Below, in pieces: positions 1-61,439 of a stretch of DNA of 64,000 nt (position 1 is the stretch's first letter; each line of letters starts with the position of its first letter). Below the pieces are notes generated by a model. That model ran no database searches, was not told the origin of the DNA, and saw nothing but the letters and a program-made list of their open reading frames with translations. The position numbers and the translations under genes are program-made. Location: the NCBI GenBank assembly GCA_000165345.1, contig CM000434.1:1152001-1216000 (forward strand), in the 5' to 3' direction.

Positions 1-2654
1 TAAATTCTAGGCTTAAATGAATTCTCTAATCCTTTAAATAATATAAAACCAGAAATTGTTGTTTCTGGAATTCTGATTACTCTATTAATTGAAGGAGGAC
101 GAATTTCTATTCCATATCCTTTACAATAAAGTTTGATTGCAAGTCTTTCAGTTCCAACTGGGAATGAACTTGATGAAGATGATGACAAGATATAGTTACT
201 GTTTGGGGATATAATATTATTTGATAGAGTATTTATTATTGATGATGTCTCTGTAAATAAGTTACTTCTTACATATGGTATCTTTGTAGACTTGGCTGAT
301 ATCTTATTTGATGAAAATGAAGAAGATGAAGATGACATTCCTCCTTTGTTATATCTCAACATTAAATGACCACTTATAAATCCTTCTAAAGAGTGTGGAA
401 TACAACTCACTTGAAGATCCTTGTTTGTCTGATCCTCACCTACTGTTAAAATGGTACCCAATGGTGGATATACTTTAAACTTTCCTTTTCTTTTAGATCC
501 TAATTCTCCTTCCATATTGACAAATTCAACCATATATTCTAAGGTACCAATACCTGAATTAGAAATTGGAATCAATGTTTTTGTTCCTTCTAATCCCATA
601 AAAGATAATCCAAGATTTGTACTATTTCCATTTGGTAAAATCGCTTTTGGTTTTGGAATACTAACAACATTAATTATTGTTTTAAGCCTACCTTGAGCCA
701 AAGTAACTTCACGATCATTAGAATCCACTAGCTTGACAACCAAAGTGGATGTAAAAGATCCAGGCTTCTCCCCAAAAGCTTTAAGTTTAAGTATTGAACT
801 TGATTGAGGTCCTATAGTATCAGGAGCTTTAAAAGTGATCCAAGAGGTACCAATTCTAGGAAATTCTTTACCATTTTCTTGGTTATAAGCTTCCTGACTC
901 ATCATTTGAACAGCTCTATGAATATTTAATGTCCCAGAGGTACGAACAGAATTTCTTAATGTTGTAAGTACTGTTACTGATCTTAATATAAGCGTTTTTG
1001 CTTGATCAAAAGTCATACTTGGATCAAAAGCATATAATAAAGCTGCAGCTCCTGAAACAAATGGACATGCCATAGAAGTCCCTGATAACCTCTTATAACC
1101 TTTATTGGCACTAGTAGATAATATATCTACTCCTGGAGCTGCCATATCTACACTTCTATGACCATAATTTGAAAAGACACCAAGTCTTCCATGTATATCA
1201 ATTGCAGCTACAGATAATACATTTGGAAGCTGGTAAGCTGATGGATAAGTTGGTCTAATATCATTATTATTTCTATCATTACCTGCTGCAACAACAAAGA
1301 GCATGTTCTTATCAATACTCCTCTTAATAGCATCATATGTAGCCTGGGAAAATGATCCTCCTCCCCAACTGTTAGATAAAATATTAGCTCCCATCTTAAT
1401 AGCATAGTTAATAGCTTTAACACTATCACTTAGAAAACCAACTCCATTTCCTCTTAGAAACTTAAGAGCCATAATTTTAACTCCCTTCCAGTTAATCCCA
1501 GAAATACCTTCATGATTATTCCCTTTTGCTGCAATAGTACCTGCACAATGTGTACCATGTCCTTCATCATCAACTGGTGCTCCTCTATTATTTGCAAAAT
1601 CATAGCCATATATATCATCAACATAACCATTCATATCATCATCAACTCCTGGTCTTCCATATAACTCTTTTTCATTAACCCACATATTCTCAACCAAATC
1701 TGGATGAGTATAATCTACACCAGTATCTATAACAGCAACAATTACTTCCCTTTTTGGATGGTTTTCAGGAGTATAATATACTCCAGATCCTTTAGATACG
1801 GATGTATTAATACCTAAATGTTTCCATGCCATCAAAACTTTTGAGTCAGTGTTTGCAACTCTATTATACATTCCCCATTGTTCAGAGAATTTGGGATCAT
1901 TTGGATATATTGCTCCAGAATCTGAACTAATTCCAAAATCTGCAAGCCTAACTTCCTGATCTGGTTCAACATATTCAACTTCATCACTATGTAAAAAACT
2001 TGCAGAAAGTTTTGAAATATATTCAGATGCTTTAGAATTGTTAAATACTTCAACAATCATCATATCTAATGCTTCGAGAACTGTAGCAGATTTGATTCCA
2101 ACAAGCTCATCAGCAGATTCTGATAAAGCTGAAACAACTCTTGTTAAGAATGCTACACCATCTAATTTAGGATATTGACCATTTTTTGACATAATTCCTG
2201 CAACTTTCAACTCTTTGACAGCTTTACTTAAGACTTTTTCCTTATACTTAATAATAAGCCTTCCTGGAATAACTTTAGATCTCCTTCCTTGACCTCTAGA
2301 GACTTTTTCTGAATTAAATTCTTGATTTGAATCCTTTTCTTGGTAATAATAATCATCTTCATCATCCATATTACCCATTTCTGAGAATTCTCCAAGGATA
2401 TGTTCTTGTTCATAATCTTCTTCTGGAGGTTTTTGTTGTTTCATAATATATGGACTAAATACTTTCTCAACAACTTGTACTTCAGGAGTTGCTGATTGGT
2501 CTGCAGGGTTTTTTATAACTAACTCTAAATCAGAGCTCCGACCTTCAACTACATTAATTGAAATTGAGCTGGTATTGAATATATTACAAATAACCCTTTT
2601 TTGAAAAAATACCAATAAATATGGCAACAACTTGAAAATATTTACCTTTTTCAT
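1..2654 (-). CDS. Subtilisin-like serine protease (peptidase S8 with I9 propeptide). Partial: the C-terminus lies beyond position 1.
   Basis: Hand translation of the minus strand from the ATG at 2654..2652 is open all the way to position 1, which is why it is absent from the ORF track. There is an N-terminal signal-peptide-like segment (MKKVNIFKLLPYLLVFF). The S8 catalytic triad motifs appear in order: VIVAVIDTGVD (Asp), DEGHGTHCAGTIAAKG (His), LSGTSMACPFVSGAAALL (Ser). Frame was cross-checked at three places (2654, 1559, 1079). Confidence 0.85.
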   Translation of the reverse strand, partial: MKKVNIFKLLPYLLVFFQKRVICNIFNTSSISINVVEGRSSDLELVIKNPADQSATPEVQVVEKVFSPYIMKQQKPPEEDYEQEHILGEFSEMGNMDDEDDYYYQEKDSNQEFNSEKVSRGQGRRSKVIPGRLIIKYKEKVLSKAVKELKVAGIMSKNGQYPKLDGVAFLTRVVSALSESADELVGIKSATVLEALDMMIVEVFNNSKASEYISKLSASFLHSDEVEYVEPDQEVRLADFGISSDSGAIYPNDPKFSEQWGMYNRVANTDSKVLMAWKHLGINTSVSKGSGVYYTPENHPKREVIVAVIDTGVDYTHPDLVENMWVNEKELYGRPGVDDDMNGYVDDIYGYDFANNRGAPVDDEGHGTHCAGTIAAKGNNHEGISGINWKGVKIMALKFLRGNGVGFLSDSVKAINYAIKMGANILSNSWGGGSFSQATYDAIKRSIDKNMLFVVAAGNDRNNNDIRPTYPSAYQLPNVLSVAAIDIHGRLGVFSNYGHRSVDMAAPGVDILSTSANKGYKRLSGTSMACPFVSGAAALLYAFDPSMTFDQAKTLILRSVTVLTTLRNSVRTSGTLNIHRAVQMMSQEAYNQENGKEFPRIGTSWITFKAPDTIGPQSSSILKLKAFGEKPGSFTSTLVVKLVDSNDREVTLAQGRLKTIINVVSIPKPKAILPNGNSTNLGLSFMGLEGTKTLIPISNSGIGTLEYMVEFVNMEGELGSKRKGKFKVYPPLGTILTVGEDQTNKDLQVSCIPHSLEGFISGHLMLRYNKGGMSSSSSSFSSNKISAKSTKIPYVRSNLFTETSSIINTLSNNIISPNSNYILSSSSSSSFPVGTERLAIKLYCKGYGIEIRPPSINRVIRIPETTISGFILFKGLENSFKPRI

Positions 2655-38824: not shown

Positions 38825-39352
38825 ATGGGTTCAAGCGATAAGGAACTTTCTGCTCTCAGAAGTAACATTAAGGAAAAGGGAGAATTTAGTTATTATTATG
38901 CTCACAAGAACAATTCTCAAGACCTCAAGGATGCAAAGATCTTTGAAGGACCAGGAATAGTAACGGGAGGACAGCCAATTTTGCTGCATAAAGATGATGA
39001 AAAAGAGCCTGTCTCTGACAAGCCTCGAAGTGTTCAGATTAAAAAGTATTCATGGTCAGACTGTGGAGAAAGTATTGAGATTTATATAAGCTTACAGGAT
39101 CTAGCCGAATTGATATCCAGTAAATCACCTCTTGAAATAGCAGGGAAACCAAATTTGGAAGTAACAAATAATACAATTTCATTGGAAGTTTTATCTGAAA
39201 ATACTAACTTCCTTTTTAAAATTGCAAACCTTTCTAACCCTATAGACTCACAACTTTCTAGAGTCAAAGTTTCAGCTAAAAGAATAACAATTATCTGTTT
39301 CAAAGAAGACTCTGAGTTGAAGTGGAACTCCCTTTGTAGGCCAATGTTATAA
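38825..39352 (+). CDS. Calcyclin-binding protein / Siah-interacting protein (CacyBP/SIP)-like CS-domain protein
   Basis: YSWSDCGESIEIYISL...LEVTNNTISLEV...FLFKIANLSNPIDSQLSRVKVSAKRITIICFKEDSELKWNSL follows the CacyBP CS-domain pattern (YGWDQSDKFVKIYITL...VHFTERSFDLLV...[43 protein letters not shown]). ATG at 38825. Confidence 0.7.
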   Translation: MGSSDKELSALRSNIKEKGEFSYYYAHKNNSQDLKDAKIFEGPGIVTGGQPILLHKDDEKEPVSDKPRSVQIKKYSWSDCGESIEIYISLQDLAELISSKSPLEIAGKPNLEVTNNTISLEVLSENTNFLFKIANLSNPIDSQLSRVKVSAKRITIICFKEDSELKWNSLCRPML

Positions 39353-39651
39353 TTTTAAGTTTTGGATTAAATAAGTTACATTAATTTTCTAAATTGATTA
39401 TTTCTTTTTCTTTTATTAGTTCCTTGCCTTTTCCTCCCTCCTGACTTATTCTTGATTATATTGTGTCAACAAAGATCTTTATGGAATTATTGATCATACT
39501 AATAAGTACTTCAAAACTAATATATATTTTTTCCATCCTCAATGTTTAAGCTACTTAGAGTCTTTTGTTGTATAGGTATTCTTTTCAATCTCGCTCTAAT
39601 TAATTGAGTAAAAATTTGAATAAATAAATTAATAAACATCTTTAAAAAAAC

Positions 39652-40570
39652 TTACCCGCATGTTGAACAGATTGGAGCTTTAAATCTTGAACAAAATATT
39701 GATAAGCAAGATGAGCATACATATCCTATTTCAATTTTCTGATGATGACAGAAACATACAGCCAAACCTGTCTGCTTTGTTTTATTAATAGAAATAAAAA
39801 TCTCCTCACGTGCCTGAATAGAAGGTAATAAATGAAAAATCAAAAAAGGAGTCAATCCCTGATCCAACCAATGATGATCCTCCTTATTTATTTCAATGTT
39901 ACTCTCTGCCAAAGAGTCTACAATTTGAGAATACTTTAAATTTAAACCATTACATATATCAACTAAATTATTCAATAAAGGAGATGGATTCCTTGTAACA
40001 CTCACAACATCAATCACCACATCCTGATTCAAAATATTACAATTAATTCAATGTTTAATAATATATGAATAAATAACTTACCAATTTTTGTGATGCAAAC
40101 CCACAATTCAGCAAAGATACATACTGAGAAATATATTCATCTTTATTTGAAGCATCTAACAGTATAATACGATCTTTTTCTGACCTATTATATCCAAACT
40201 TCTTTCTTGTACTATTAATCTTACACAAACACTTTGAAATGGTTGGGCTCATCTTCATCTCGCCCAATGAAATTCTTTCTGAAATCTCCTCTAACATCTT
40301 TGGCATTATCTCAAATTGTAACTCCTTTGTCAAGCCAGATATAAAACCATCAAACAACAAATTCTCGCCTTTTGAGTCGCATAGATATATATTCAGCTTC
40401 TTTTTCTGACCAGTACTAAGATTATATAGCCTTGTGAATTGAAATATTGAATTCAGTACGCATTCTCCCGAAACCAATAAGTTACTTTGAGCATTTGATT
40501 GACTTTCTCCAGTATCCTCATATCTAAATAAACTTCTTGAATCCAGAATTATATATAAAGTCCCCTCCAT
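39652..40570 (-). CDS. TFB4: TFIIH subunit p34 (TFB4/GTF2H3), two exons: 40082..40570 and 39652..40023, with an intron at 40024..40081
   Basis: C-terminal exon: [36 protein letters not shown] matches the human p34 zinc finger [34 protein letters not shown]. Track ORF 40055..40570 ends three codons into a GTAAGT donor (40081), and ORF 39652..40032 begins at TTG. A 58-nt GTAAGT...ATCAG intron (phase 0) gives ...FASQKL|DVVIDVV..., parallel to human ...FAAQKQNILIDACVLD. Total 286 aa. Confidence 0.8.
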
Positions 40571-40679
40571 AGCCTACTTTTTCATTTATCGTTACTTTGA
40601 AATTACCACTTTAATTCCAAATTGGCGCCAACATTGGAATGATTTTTGTGATCTCAAGACTATTCTAACTTGAATATTT

Positions 40680-41962
40680 TCATGATTTATCACTATAATA
40701 TTCGCTACTATCATCTTCCTTAATATGTTCTAGCTGACTAAACAGTTCACTTGCATTGCTTGGCTTTGGATTATATATTGATCTAGAAGTAAGTTTTTCC
40801 CTTGATTCAATCAAAGGTGACTGTTCATTCTCATCAAGTTCATTATCTTGACTGTATCCTGCATCTCTCAACTCACTGCTAAGACTTTTGTACTTAGAAT
40901 AACTGTTTCTGGGACTTCTACTGATGAGTGAAATTGGCTTCCTTAGTGAGGGCAAATTGATTCCATAATTATAATCTGTAAATGTATGCATTGTTTGTAA
41001 TCTATTACTAACTAATTTATTAATTCCTTGTTCCATTGCATCACTCTTGTTACTAAATCTCTGCATCTCTGTTACATTAATACTTTGAGAATCACTAGTA
41101 ATACCATTATCTTCTGAAGCCATTTGCAGAATTTCGACCATGTACATTCTTAATTGCTCGGATGAAAGACTTGCATAAGTTGGAAGTAGAGTTCCAACTC
41201 CTTGTACAAAATGAGTTCTTACTTGTGTTTCATCAAAACCACTAACTAGTTCCATTATATCTCTTGTTGGCACAATTTTATCATTAAGACTTTGTACAAT
41301 CATCAGACTTTGAAATCTTTCAGGCTCTAATTCCATTCTACTAAACGTAAATCTTCTAAAGTTTATGATAGATGGAGAAAACATTATCACAGGAACTTTG
41401 CTTATCCTTGAGTTTACCTTGCTCACGCTAACTGCTGAAAAATCTGACGTCATAATTATCTCAGGCTTGAAGGCCAATATATTCTTTTCTATTATATCTT
41501 TTGCAACATTTGCACAACGCTTCAATACTATTATCCCAGTTATTCTATACCCTACAATGATTAGAAAAGCCTTTGATTTTTTTTTGTTTTTTTAATCTTA
41601 ATCAAATTGAAAATATTTTAAACTTACCATTAAGATTGGTAACACAATCTTCAATCCAAGATTAAAAGATACCAAGAATTCAACTATTCTGTATTATAAG
41701 AAATATAATTAAATTGTTTTTTTCCTAAATTTATTTAATTTAAAACTTACATTAATACTATAAAAATCAGCAATGATATAGCAACATATGAAGTCTTGGA
41801 CCTTATTATTAAAGTTTGATACCTCAAATCTGGAGACCGAATGTATGAAACTCCAACAATCTCCTCTACTTGCTTCTTTCTATATGACTTATAATTATCA
41901 TAGAATCTGCAAAAAAAAAAAATCATTATTATTATTAGAAAATAAGAAAATATTTCTATCAT
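40680..41962 (-). CDS. Hypothetical two-TM membrane protein, two exons: 41751..41962 and 40680..41544, with a 206-nt intron at 41545..41750
   Basis: Track ORF 41747..41962 (ATG at 41962) ends at a TAA that overlaps a GTAAGT donor (phase 2). The downstream ORF 40680..41525 starts at TTG and has no in-frame ATG before M25; an in-frame TAA sits just upstream of the TTG. An AG at 41546..41545 joins the two in frame and creates a continuous hydrophobic helix across the junction (YVAISLLIFIVL|I|ITGIIVLKR). A first AG at 41553..41552 is out of frame. Predicted 358 aa. Confidence 0.5.
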
Positions 41963-42457
41963 ATATTATTGAATTTAATCAACTTCAAACTCACCCATGA
42001 AGATATAATACTCGAATCCCATTCAAATTATCCATTATTCTCGCTATCTCAGTATATTATTCACACTAATTATCCTAAAAACTTTACTATTTCTTGGCAT
42101 TCCAATTCTTAAACTCGATAAAATCCGAAACTTCAACATAATCCTCTTCTTTTTTATGACTCTATTTTTCCATCAACTACTTTTCACAAGTGCCACAAAT
42201 TTGCAATGCATGCAGCCCCCTTTGCATGTTTCCCTTTTGACTGCTATGCCGTCATTCATGCAATGACATAAGTTTTGCCGCCATACGTGGCAGTGTATGT
42301 AAACCTCCCACATGCACAAAGAATAAACTACATTTGAGAAAATAATAAGAAGAAAATTATTCAATATACTATACTGGGAATCTATGTACTAAATGAGAGT
42401 TGCTAATCAATATAAGATGGATGACTCATCTTTTGTGCAATTCTTATAACTAGAAAC

Positions 42458-44467
42458 TCAATAGTGAAAATTATTGATAAAATGGGGTTGCTTCACAACA
42501 GAACTTTCAACCCCAACAAACTTATGGCCATTGTTTGTATAACTTAGAGTGGCTGCAGAGGAGGTATTCACCTGTTGTTGGTTTCTTAATGATGCAGCAA
42601 ACTCGTTATTATAAACTGAATTGTTATCAGAAGACCCTGACAAAAACTGACTGTTTAGCATTAGTTTATGTTGTTGTCCGTCGTTTTTAAAGAACTTGTG
42701 ACCTATTGGAGGATTTGCAGGCCTTAGAGACGTCCCAACTGACTTATAATAGCTTCTCTGGGATTCTGCTAAGTCTTCAGAAACTGGACTCTGACCGCCA
42801 CTATAATTATTAAAATGTGTAGCATGTGAAACATTGTGAATATTTATCTGATTACTACTATTTATGTTTGCCATTGAACTCTTTCCCATACCAATACTTT
42901 GTTTTCCAACTTCACAATATTGTTTCTCATCTTCTATGAAAGTTTGGTGAGAGCTCACATTGTTAGGTATAATATTTGATTTGATTATAGCAATTACCTG
43001 AGGATGCCATAGAATTGGAAAGTTATTATGGAAACAAAATAAAAGCTGTTGAATACAATCTGGGTGAAACAAAGCCTTCTTAATACTCCACCTTGTATTT
43101 GGGTTGGGGTCAGTAAACCCAATAAAGATCTCCCACATGAAGTACTGGCTCTGCTTTAATTGAGTATTCCCTTTTTGTTTTCCTTTACTCAGAATCTTAT
43201 TATTAAAATCACTTCTGATTAGTTCCACTACTTTTAGAATATAAGGAGCTGCTTCTGTAACATCCAATCCTTTCTGTCTGCAAATAAACCTACCAGTGAG
43301 AAACAACAATAAGTTCATTCCAACTGCATAGTTGTCTATCTTTTCGGTTAAAGGACCTTTAAATGTCAATACTTCCGGGGGATTAATTTCAAGTGTTCCT
43401 GGCCATTCTGAGGGGCTCAAATGTAACTTCTTCGTTTGTTCACTCCACCCAAAATCACCTATTACTATTGTTTTATTTGAATATCTTAAAATATTCGTTG
43501 GTTTCAAGTCTCTATGTACTACCCCCTTGTCTTGGAAGTATAATACGCTCTGAATTAGTTGAATAAAGTGCTGGAAGGCTTCCAATTCGCTTACACAACA
43601 GTTCTCACGCCAAATAGTACCATCATCTACATAATCTTGAACTAATAGGCTTCCTTCTGGGCCTACTACGATCTTGTGCAGCCTAACTACACCTGGACAT
43701 TGGCTTACTATGAGATTCTTTATTTCTGACTGAAACATTCTCTCAATCCTTTCTACTGTATCTGAAGGATAAGTATGAGGTTCTAATAGTTTTCCTGCAT
43801 ATTTCTTCCCCGTTATTTTATCTTTCAAAAGCCAAACTTTAGCATAAGTCCCAGTTCCTATCATTTCAAGTCTTTCATATGAACTATAAACGCTTGTATA
43901 TCTTTCATCAATTATTCTTTCCCAATTTGGAATCTTTTTATACCAATCTGCTTCAGTAAATCCTCCCAAGTTCACCTTCTTGTAGTTTGTTTGGTTCAAT
44001 GAGCTTTGAGATCCACTTTTGCTACTCAATTTAGTGTTCTTATCTACAATTCTGGTATCATATTCATGATCTCTTTTCTCAGTAAATTCTTCACTTATTT
44101 GACGTTTATTAGTTTCTAACTGTTGAATTACTCTTGGGGTTTCTGAAATCTCCATGTTTCTGTCAACATAGCTCCCTTCCATTACTCCAACGCTTTTTTT
44201 ATATTCTGATATATTTTGTCTGATTAAGTTTCCATTTCTTCCTAATATATCATTTCTATTGTTCCCTGTAAATTCCATCTCTTCTCCATGTTGTAGAAAC
44301 TTTTTATCAGAATAACCAGAATTAAAGTTATGCTTGAATCTAGGTGTTGAACTTTCATTCCTCATACCATCAGTACCTCCATTATTGATATCCCAAGTGT
44401 GTCTGTTCGGAGTGTCATAAATCCTTGTGTTCCCTGATATATTACACCCTTCGTGAATAGTATACAT
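42458..44467 (-). CDS. Serine/threonine protein kinase (C-terminal kinase domain, N-terminal low-complexity region)
   Basis: GTGTYAKVW (Gly loop), AGK (VAIK-type Lys), HRDLKPTNIL, IGDFGWS, PPEVL. The track ORF starts at TTG 44485; the first ATG is 44467. Confidence 0.75.
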   Translation of the reverse strand: MYTIHEGCNISGNTRIYDTPNRHTWDINNGGTDGMRNESSTPRFKHNFNSGYSDKKFLQHGEEMEFTGNNRNDILGRNGNLIRQNISEYKKSVGVMEGSYVDRNMEISETPRVIQQLETNKRQISEEFTEKRDHEYDTRIVDKNTKLSSKSGSQSSLNQTNYKKVNLGGFTEADWYKKIPNWERIIDERYTSVYSSYERLEMIGTGTYAKVWLLKDKITGKKYAGKLLEPHTYPSDTVERIERMFQSEIKNLIVSQCPGVVRLHKIVVGPEGSLLVQDYVDDGTIWRENCCVSELEAFQHFIQLIQSVLYFQDKGVVHRDLKPTNILRYSNKTIVIGDFGWSEQTKKLHLSPSEWPGTLEINPPEVLTFKGPLTEKIDNYAVGMNLLLFLTGRFICRQKGLDVTEAAPYILKVVELIRSDFNNKILSKGKQKGNTQLKQSQYFMWEIFIGFTDPNPNTRWSIKKALFHPDCIQQLLFCFHNNFPILWHPQVIAIIKSNIIPNNVSSHQTFIEDEKQYCEVGKQSIGMGKSSMANINSSNQINIHNVSHATHFNNYSGGQSPVSEDLAESQRSYYKSVGTSLRPANPPIGHKFFKNDGQQHKLMLNSQFLSGSSDNNSVYNNEFAASLRNQQQVNTSSAATLSYTNNGHKFVGVESSVVKQPHFINNFHY

Positions 44468-53303: not shown

Positions 53304-61439
<8,136 letters not shown>

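Follow-up and report, generated by a model that had tools for sequence, protein, structure and literature searches.

Comparative evidence for four exons and three short introns in the Cryptosporidium parvum gene cgd6_5050

Introns have been described in 10.8% of Cryptosporidium genes, with a mean of 2.6 exons per intron-containing gene; they average 99 base pairs in length (n = 688) and have a guanine-cytosine (GC) content of 22% (Isaza 2015, PMC4637869). In the CPATCC annotation of C. parvum, 100% of the introns are supported by RNA sequencing (RNA-seq) (Baptista 2022, PMC8744675). We examined the gene cgd6_5050, on the minus strand of C. parvum chromosome 6. It lies in a stretch of 64,000 nucleotides (nt) from GenBank assembly GCA_000165345.1 (contig CM000434.1, positions 1,152,001 to 1,216,000), which we call the window and whose GC content is about 30%. 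The gene's deposited label is "hypothetical predicted multi-pass transmembrane protein." In a protein search, the open reading frame (ORF) at 41525..40680 (minus strand) was 100% identical to C. parvum cgd6_5050, CPATCC_0016690, and cpbgf_6005050. Like typical Cryptosporidium introns (PMC4637869), the introns that we derived for cgd6_5050 are GT-AG introns with GTAAGT-type donors, and they are short (57-88 nt) and AT-rich (13-17% GC). Unlike the average intron-containing gene in that survey, cgd6_5050 would have four exons, which is above the mean of 2.6, and all of its introns would fall close together within the 5' 470 nt.

We think it very likely that cgd6_5050 is a four-exon gene with three short and ordinary GT-AG spliceosomal introns within its first ~470 nt. 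The coding sequence would be 1149 nt and would encode 382 amino acids. Splicing would join exon 1 (ending in phase 2) to exon 2 (phase 2), then to exon 3 (phase 0), and then to exon 4. The proposed features, together with three others discussed below, are as follows.

42035..41995, minus strand: exon 1, 41 nt, from the ATG at 42035 to the first two bases of Gly14; encodes MDNLNGIRVLYLHG; a phase 2 intron follows
41994..41907, minus strand: intron 1, 88 nt, GTGAGTTT...TTTTTTTTTTTTGCAG, 17% GC
41906..41751, minus strand: exon 2, 156 nt; encodes (G)FYDNYKSYRKKQVEEIVGVSYIRSPDLRYQTLIIRSKTSYVAISLLIFIVL; ends in phase 2
41750..41689, minus strand: intron 2, 62 nt, GTAAGTTT...ATACAG, 13% GC
41688..41628, minus strand: exon 3, 61 nt; encodes (I)IVEFLVSFNLGLKIVLPILM, which is the end of the first predicted transmembrane helix, a turn, and the start of the second; ends in phase 0
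41627..41571, minus strand: intron 3, 57 nt, GTAAGTTT...TCAAAG, 14% GC
41570..40680, minus strand: exon 4, 891 nt including the TGA stop; begins AFLIIVGYRITGIIVLKR
41788..41523, minus strand: span coding for the predicted hairpin (residues 54-102), split by introns 2 and 3
41546..41545, minus strand: AG within the Tyr94-Arg95 codons (TAT AGA) of exon 4
41881..41880, minus strand: alternative acceptor AG for intron 1, used by the 373-residue models; lies inside Tyr-Arg codons and omits FYDNYKSYR

The spliced coding sequence has no internal stop, and its product begins MDNLNGIRVLYLHGFYDNY. All three C. parvum donors fit GTRAGTTT (GTGAGTTT, GTAAGTTT, and GTAAGTTT). The donor of intron 1 (CATGG/GTGAGTTT, at 41994) pairs with a T12-GCAG acceptor at 41908..41907. 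The acceptor of intron 2 (ATACAG/A, at 41690..41689) opens the 61-nt exon 3. Intron 3 runs from ATG/GTAAGTTT (with the G at 41627) to the AG at 41572..41571 (TCAAAG/GCTTTT); it is 57 nt long, in phase 0, and its removal keeps the frame. The junctions in the spliced sequence are CTTCATGG with ATTCTATG (exons 1 and 2), GTATTAAT with AATAGTTG (exons 2 and 3), and TCTTAATG with GCTTTTCT (exons 3 and 4). The peptides GFYDNYK and VLYLHGFYDNYK would span the first junction. We also considered skipping of exon 3, in which the donor at 41750 would be joined to the acceptor at 41571. This gives AT/G CTT TTC TAA, which terminates, so we rejected it.

The evidence for this structure comes from comparing the C. 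parvum window to the orthologous DNA of ten other genomes, which gives 11 species in all. The others are C. meleagridis, C. ubiquitum, C. felis, C. canis, chipmunk genotype I, C. bovis, C. ryanae, two sequencing-run assemblies (one of which is SRR18693150), and GCA_051169045.1, which is distant and very AT-rich. (GCA_051169045.1 has the most divergent orthologous locus, with 22% GC regionally, and was detected only by an exhaustive profile search.) In all of the genomes compared, the orthologue lies in the same order with a protein kinase and Tfb4, which are the upstream and downstream neighbors of cgd6_5050 (Tfb4 is split). The four coding pieces are visible in the raw three-frame translations from all 11 species. 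The lengths of the first three exons are constant (41, 156, and 61 nt in 11/11), GTRRGT donors are present at 33 of 33 sites, and an AG acceptor is found at the homologous position at 33 of 33. Exon 1 reads M..L.G.RVLYLHG and then GTRRGT in every species, and the acceptor of intron 3 is always 7 codons before (Y/F)RITG. Spliced accordingly, all 11 orthologues are uninterrupted and encode 355-394 amino acids. The intron lengths drift without regard to the reading frame (64-88, 53-81, and 45-77 nt for introns 1, 2, and 3).

The exons and introns also evolve differently. As a coding signature, we used the mean pairwise nucleotide difference at codon positions 1, 2, and 3, which gave the following values.

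Exon 1: 0.24/0.10/0.44
First 28 nt of exon 2: 0.08/0.12/0.54
Exon 3: 0.41/0.16/0.51
First 26 nt of exon 4: 0.34/0.13/0.57

Every exon segment that we tested has the pattern of coding sequence, with variation in the order position 2 < 1 < 3 in exon 1, exon 3, and the start of exon 4. The introns have stops in most or all reading frames (in all frames for intron 1). At intermediate evolutionary distance, conservation is clearly higher in the exons: between C. canis and C. parvum, exon 3 is 70% identical, whereas intron 2 is 48% and intron 3 is 44% identical. The identity of intron 2 to C. parvum also drops faster than that of the exons. Overall, the three introns have GTRAGT-like donors, an AG that restores the frame, and non-coding evolution, as U2-type GT-AG introns do. 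As a side observation, the length of intron 3 in chipmunk genotype I and SRR18693150 (51 nt) is divisible by 3, and in both it has no stop in the exon frame. Retention of intron 3 in these two would keep the frame and add 17 residues (VSLRCFQLDWRLKQNLK-like) to the second helix. The 57-nt intron 3 of C. parvum contains an in-frame stop.

An earlier reading of the window, made from the sequence alone (the sequence-only reading), had proposed two exons instead: a start at the ATG at 41962, a single intron of 206 nt (41750..41545), a single transmembrane helix, and an internal GTAAGT that was coincidental. Most of the sequence facts behind this reading hold. The ORF at 41962..41747 (71 amino acids, beginning with ATG) does end in a TAA that overlaps a GTAAGT, with its G at 41750, and this is a real donor: it is the donor of intron 2 and is conserved in the 11 species. 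The downstream 281-residue ORF at 41525..40680 begins with TTG and has its first ATG at codon 25, as had been noted, and we agree that the two ORFs belong to exons of one spliced membrane-protein gene. The earlier AG at 41553..41552 is indeed out of frame, by simple arithmetic (199 nt would be removed). Joining 41751 to 41544 does remove 206 nt in frame and does give ...AISLLIFIVL-I-ITGIIVLKR (the nucleotide junction is GTATTAAT with AATAACTGGG, and the spanning peptide is ...IFIVLIITGIIVLK), but this is not the real join. The 206-nt interval is instead the sum of intron 2 (62 nt), exon 3 (61 nt), intron 3 (57 nt), and the first 26 nt of exon 4.

The two-exon structure is almost certainly wrong, although it has some points in its favor. 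It gives an ORF of 358 amino acids, and precisely this join (41750/41545) was made in the model deposited for C. ubiquitum (P0009). Nevertheless, the DNA of C. ubiquitum keeps exon 3 and both short introns intact. The two-exon join would lose 29 codons that are invariant in length, conserved in phase, and of coding-type evolution in the 11 species, and with them the invariant residues E69, F74, L78, K79, and L82 of exon 3 and Y94 and R95 of exon 4. Nor need the AG at 41546..41545 reflect splicing. The position of Tyr94-Arg95 reads TAY AGR in 11/11 species, so the AG is conserved because it lies within these invariant codons. The 358-residue product is absent from a collection of 15 billion proteins, and an intron of 206 nt would be about twice the genome mean (PMC4637869). 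Such a length had been called unusual for this genome. The introns here are not unusually long, because about 60 nt is the local norm (the intron in neighboring Tfb4 has 58 nt and the same type of donor).

Two arguments that had been offered for the two-exon join do not hold up. The first was that the ATG/GTAAGT inside the proposed intron was a decoy, with no AG to which it could be spliced in frame. Once the preceding 61 nt are entered through the acceptor of intron 2, the AG at 41572..41571 is such a partner, and the supposed decoy is the genuine donor of intron 3. Exact copies of GTAAGTTT occur eight times in the window (both strands), versus 3.19 expected, and 0 of 100 shuffles reach eight; two such donors on the same strand and 123 nt apart therefore cannot be dismissed as coincidence. 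The second, which does not discriminate between the structures, was that the join reconstitutes one transmembrane helix. By Kyte-Doolittle hydropathy, residues 46-103 (or, more narrowly, 53-103) form one continuous hydrophobic block. Because the block is continuous, whichever 29 residues are taken out of it in frame, a run of about 21 hydrophobic residues remains, and KR comes next. The true junctions between exons 2 and 3 and between exons 3 and 4 likewise fall within hydrophobic helices, and an in-frame AG is a 1-in-3 chance event. The lesson is that where the whole neighborhood is hydrophobic, a proposed junction gains no support from an unbroken hydrophobic run across it.

Could the AG at 41546..41545 be an occasional acceptor? 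In this case, the four-exon form would be the major one, and the donor at 41750 would sometimes be joined to this cryptic AG. The minor isoform would be in frame and would have one transmembrane helix instead of a hairpin, which would place the N-terminal segment on the opposite side of the membrane. The AG is in a reasonable acceptor context (TTGTAGGGTATAG/A in C. parvum and TTTTACAG/A in C. bovis), and the isoform would be in frame in all of the species. But the AG is constrained by the coding sequence anyway, we found no supporting evidence for the isoform, and cgd6_5050 is not among the only three C. parvum genes that are reported as putatively alternatively spliced (Baptista 2022, PMC8744675). 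We consider this isoform to be quite improbable.

Several points weigh against the four-exon structure itself. First, we infer the use of the splice sites in C. parvum mRNA, rather than reading it from transcripts. Second, the 382-residue C. parvum product is absent from the 15-billion-protein collection (by exact-sequence look-up). Third, in the two most distant species pairs, the identity of exon 3 to C. parvum is 0.59-0.61, which is not above that of the introns. Raw identity no longer separates exons from introns at this distance, and for these species the case is made by the conserved lengths, phases, and protein sequence. Fourth, the deposited C. parvum models differ from ours at the 5' end: three independent annotations (P0001, P0002, and P0003) start within intron 1, which they do not annotate, and another model (P0138, 373 amino acids) joins exon 1 to an acceptor that lies 27 nt downstream of ours.

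These points bear unequally on the three introns. Introns 2 and 3 are present in P0001, P0002, and P0003, which are the reference models for C. parvum, with the very boundaries that we derived. (P0001 and P0003 are 100% identical over exon 4, and the three-exon version of the window translates identically to P0003.) Because the CPATCC model (P0001) contains introns 2 and 3, its published RNA-seq support covers these two introns and not intron 1. This suggests that introns 2 and 3 are used in C. parvum mRNA. For intron 1, it is the comparison across species that points to its use.

The reference annotations would be correct if transcription or translation began inside what we call intron 1, at the ATG at 41962 or at the next ATG. 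Exon 1 would then be unused, and the gene would have three exons and encode 375-387 amino acids. Besides the agreement of the three annotations, the CPATCC annotation was manually curated with RNA-seq. However, all 11 species preserve exon 1 together with its ATG and its donor, and exon 1 has the coding signature. Intron 1 contains both the ATG at 41962..41960, which the sequence-only reading took as the start, and the start ATG of CPATCC_0016690. In 9 of the 11 species, the ATG at 41962 has no counterpart. Indeed, in these nine the stretch from the last stop of intron 1 to exon 2 lacks any in-frame ATG, so exon 1 must supply the initiator. In C. parvum, the ATG at 41962 sits 56 nt upstream of exon 2, and the peptide that it would add (MIEIFSYFLIIIMIFFFC) comes from translating the pyrimidine tract: it reads through the poly-T/GCAG acceptor, and it is not conserved even in C. 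meleagridis. Also, the C. tyzzeri model and P0138 from C. parvum both include exon 1. A start within intron 1 is thus improbable, and the start is more plausibly the ATG at 42035. The start codon given for cgd6_5050 in the C. parvum reference models is most likely wrong, and the comparison supports a 382-residue product that starts with MDNLNGIRVLYLHGFYDNY.

The other variant at the 5' end accepts exon 1 and places the acceptor of intron 1 at the AG at 41881..41880, 27 nt downstream. The junction becomes CTTCATGG with AAAGAAGC, and the product has 373 amino acids and begins MDNLNGIRVLYLHG-KKQVEE.... This splice keeps the frame, and models that use it have been deposited for C. hominis (P0004), C. 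meleagridis (P0007), and C. parvum (P0138). But it skips nine codons (FYDNYKSYR, in the first 28 nt of exon 2) that are conserved in length and have the strongest coding pattern of all the segments, which is why we prefer the upstream acceptor. Furthermore, the upstream acceptor has a long pyrimidine tract, while the downstream AG is inside Tyr-Arg codons. We consider the downstream acceptor to be very improbable.

Given the four-exon structure, we compared it to the other deposited models of the orthologues. Exon 1 is annotated in C. tyzzeri (P0005), C. hominis (P0004 and P0006), C. meleagridis (P0007), C. felis (P0013), and C. parvum (P0138), and exon 3 is contained in P0001 through P0007. 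All four exons are present in the C. tyzzeri model (CTYZ_00001712, TRY51009.1, P0005), which shares 99% identity with our 382-residue product. This is also the only deposited model that fits the four-exon template that is valid in the 11 genomes. Overall, the deposited models span 239-387 amino acids, and the five C. parvum products have 257, 373, 375, 376, and 387. Several models consist of the last ORF only, beginning at an internal methionine or within intron 3 (P0010). In species besides C. parvum, at least ten deposited models are cut short or wrongly spliced, and every one of them can be fitted to the four-exon template. This is an ordinary gene, most of which had already been annotated. 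What is gained is a better 5' end for C. parvum and a template that repairs the orthologue models; beyond annotation hygiene, the importance is small, and the long intron with a decoy donor does not exist.

We then considered the protein. The 382-residue product has a short N-terminal soluble segment (MDNLNGIRVLYLHGFYDNY...), a hydrophobic hairpin, a conserved domain of ~140 residues, and a low-complexity tail that is acidic and rich in serine. The hairpin is about 50 residues: two hydrophobic segments of about 20 residues each, which are predicted to be helices at ~54-74 and ~80-102, with a short turn (N75-K79) and with basic flanks on the same predicted side (R49/K51 and K103/R104). AlphaFold 2, run with a 13-row alignment, predicted a helix at 22-73, a turn at 74-77, and a helix at 78-118. 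Its mean confidence (predicted local distance difference test score, pLDDT) was 38.5; pLDDT reached 56-70 only at residues ~50-100 and was about 30 over the conserved domain. Together, the hydropathy, the predicted structure, and the basic flanks point to a hairpin of two helices whose ends would face the same side of the membrane. As a side observation, residues E69, K79, Y94, R95, T97, and G98 of the hairpin do not vary among the 10 species that were aligned. Such constancy of polar or charged residues is unusual for a passive membrane anchor, which suggests that the hairpin has a specific function or interaction.

The protein is restricted to Cryptosporidium. Word-indexed searches gave 15 proteins, the same ones both times, and none were from outside the genus. 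An exhaustive HMMER profile search of 1.84 billion representatives found three clusters, which are all from Cryptosporidium. Comparing the full-length protein, a hairpin-deleted version, and ten orthologues to Pfam gave nothing significant: the only matches were FSH1 (residues 7-25) and DUF2207_C (the hydrophobic part), both with an expect value (E) of 0.19.

In a profile search of the PDB, the sole match was the kinase PYK2 (3et7), with E ~0.01, over a stretch of ~75 residues that resembles the catalytic loop, DFG, and APE of kinases. There cgd6_5050 has KDIIEKNIL...DFS...SPSIINFRRFT, and PYK2 has RDIAVRNIL...DFG...SPESINFRRFT, with kinase-like spacing. (This stretch is encoded at 41570..41094 and corresponds to residues ~88-162, KDIIEKNIL-x13-DFS-x21-SPSIINFRRFT.) However, unlike protein kinases, cgd6_5050 has no Pkinase match in Pfam and no N-lobe motifs, and the region after "SPS" looks rich in strands rather than helical. 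When we used hhalign to compare it to the neighboring kinase, the same stretch was aligned with a probability of 0.2%. The resemblance is not statistically significant; after this comparison we rejected membership in the kinase-like superfamily, and the similarity is most likely due to chance.

A second resemblance, which we view as a lead only, is to the UPF0227/YqiA α/β-hydrolases (PF05728). Once the hairpin is removed, the order and spacing of the motifs match: LYLHGF and (S/H)PD are shared, and IMTSDFSA, VIMFSPSI, and IVQSLNDKIV in cgd6_5050 correspond to IVGSSLGG, AVVVNPAV, and LLQQTGDEVL. (As YqiA motifs, we read VLYLHGF, TSDFS, SPS, ND, and GVG.) Comparing cgd6_5050 to members of PF05728 with hhalign reproduced this alignment, with a probability of 7.5% and P = 0.0047 (0.11 for a reversed control), where PF05728 was chosen as the target after the resemblance had been noticed. 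This does not amount to a family-level score, and none of the 10 orthologues matched PF05728 in Pfam. Also, the catalytic triad of PF05728 (Ser in a G-x-S-x-G nucleophile elbow, an acid residue, and His) is absent from cgd6_5050. The aligned elbow reads T-S-D-F-S, with Asp for Ser; the aligned His position is Thr (GVGT); and only the acid (N-D183) matches. Another difference from YqiA is the inserted hydrophobic hairpin of 50 residues. If the resemblance were real, cgd6_5050 might encode a Cryptosporidium-restricted and catalytically altered α/β-hydrolase (Ser to Asp and His to Thr) that is split by a two-helix hairpin with invariant charged residues (E69, K79, and R95). Through the hairpin, the two halves of the domain would both stay on one face of the membrane, and if the cryptic acceptor at 41545 were sometimes used, the hairpin could become a single pass. 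The correct protein would, separately, be missing from every public record of C. parvum. We regard this combined picture as unlikely.

A few results concern the locus more broadly. We found no Rfam match on either strand of 40400..42500, no support for plus-strand ORFs in the interval, and no paper in a literature search by the names cgd6_5050 and CPATCC_0016690. The ratio of nonsynonymous to synonymous substitution rates (dN/dS) of cgd6_5050 against the C. hominis orthologue is 0.085 (supplement of Isaza 2015, PMC4637869). The downstream Tfb4 gene (39200..40570, minus strand) has an intron of 58 nt at 40081..40024 (AAATTG/GTAAGTTA ... AATCAG/GAT), and another GTAAGTTT donor, at 39655, terminates its next ORF. 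Farther away, a single ORF of 2711 codons (53304..61439, minus strand) lies in the most AT-rich part of the window (50-64 kilobases, with 18-28% GC). The GC skew is strongly negative around it (-0.43 to -0.57 at 54-58 kilobases), and it is probably a gene for a large low-complexity protein.

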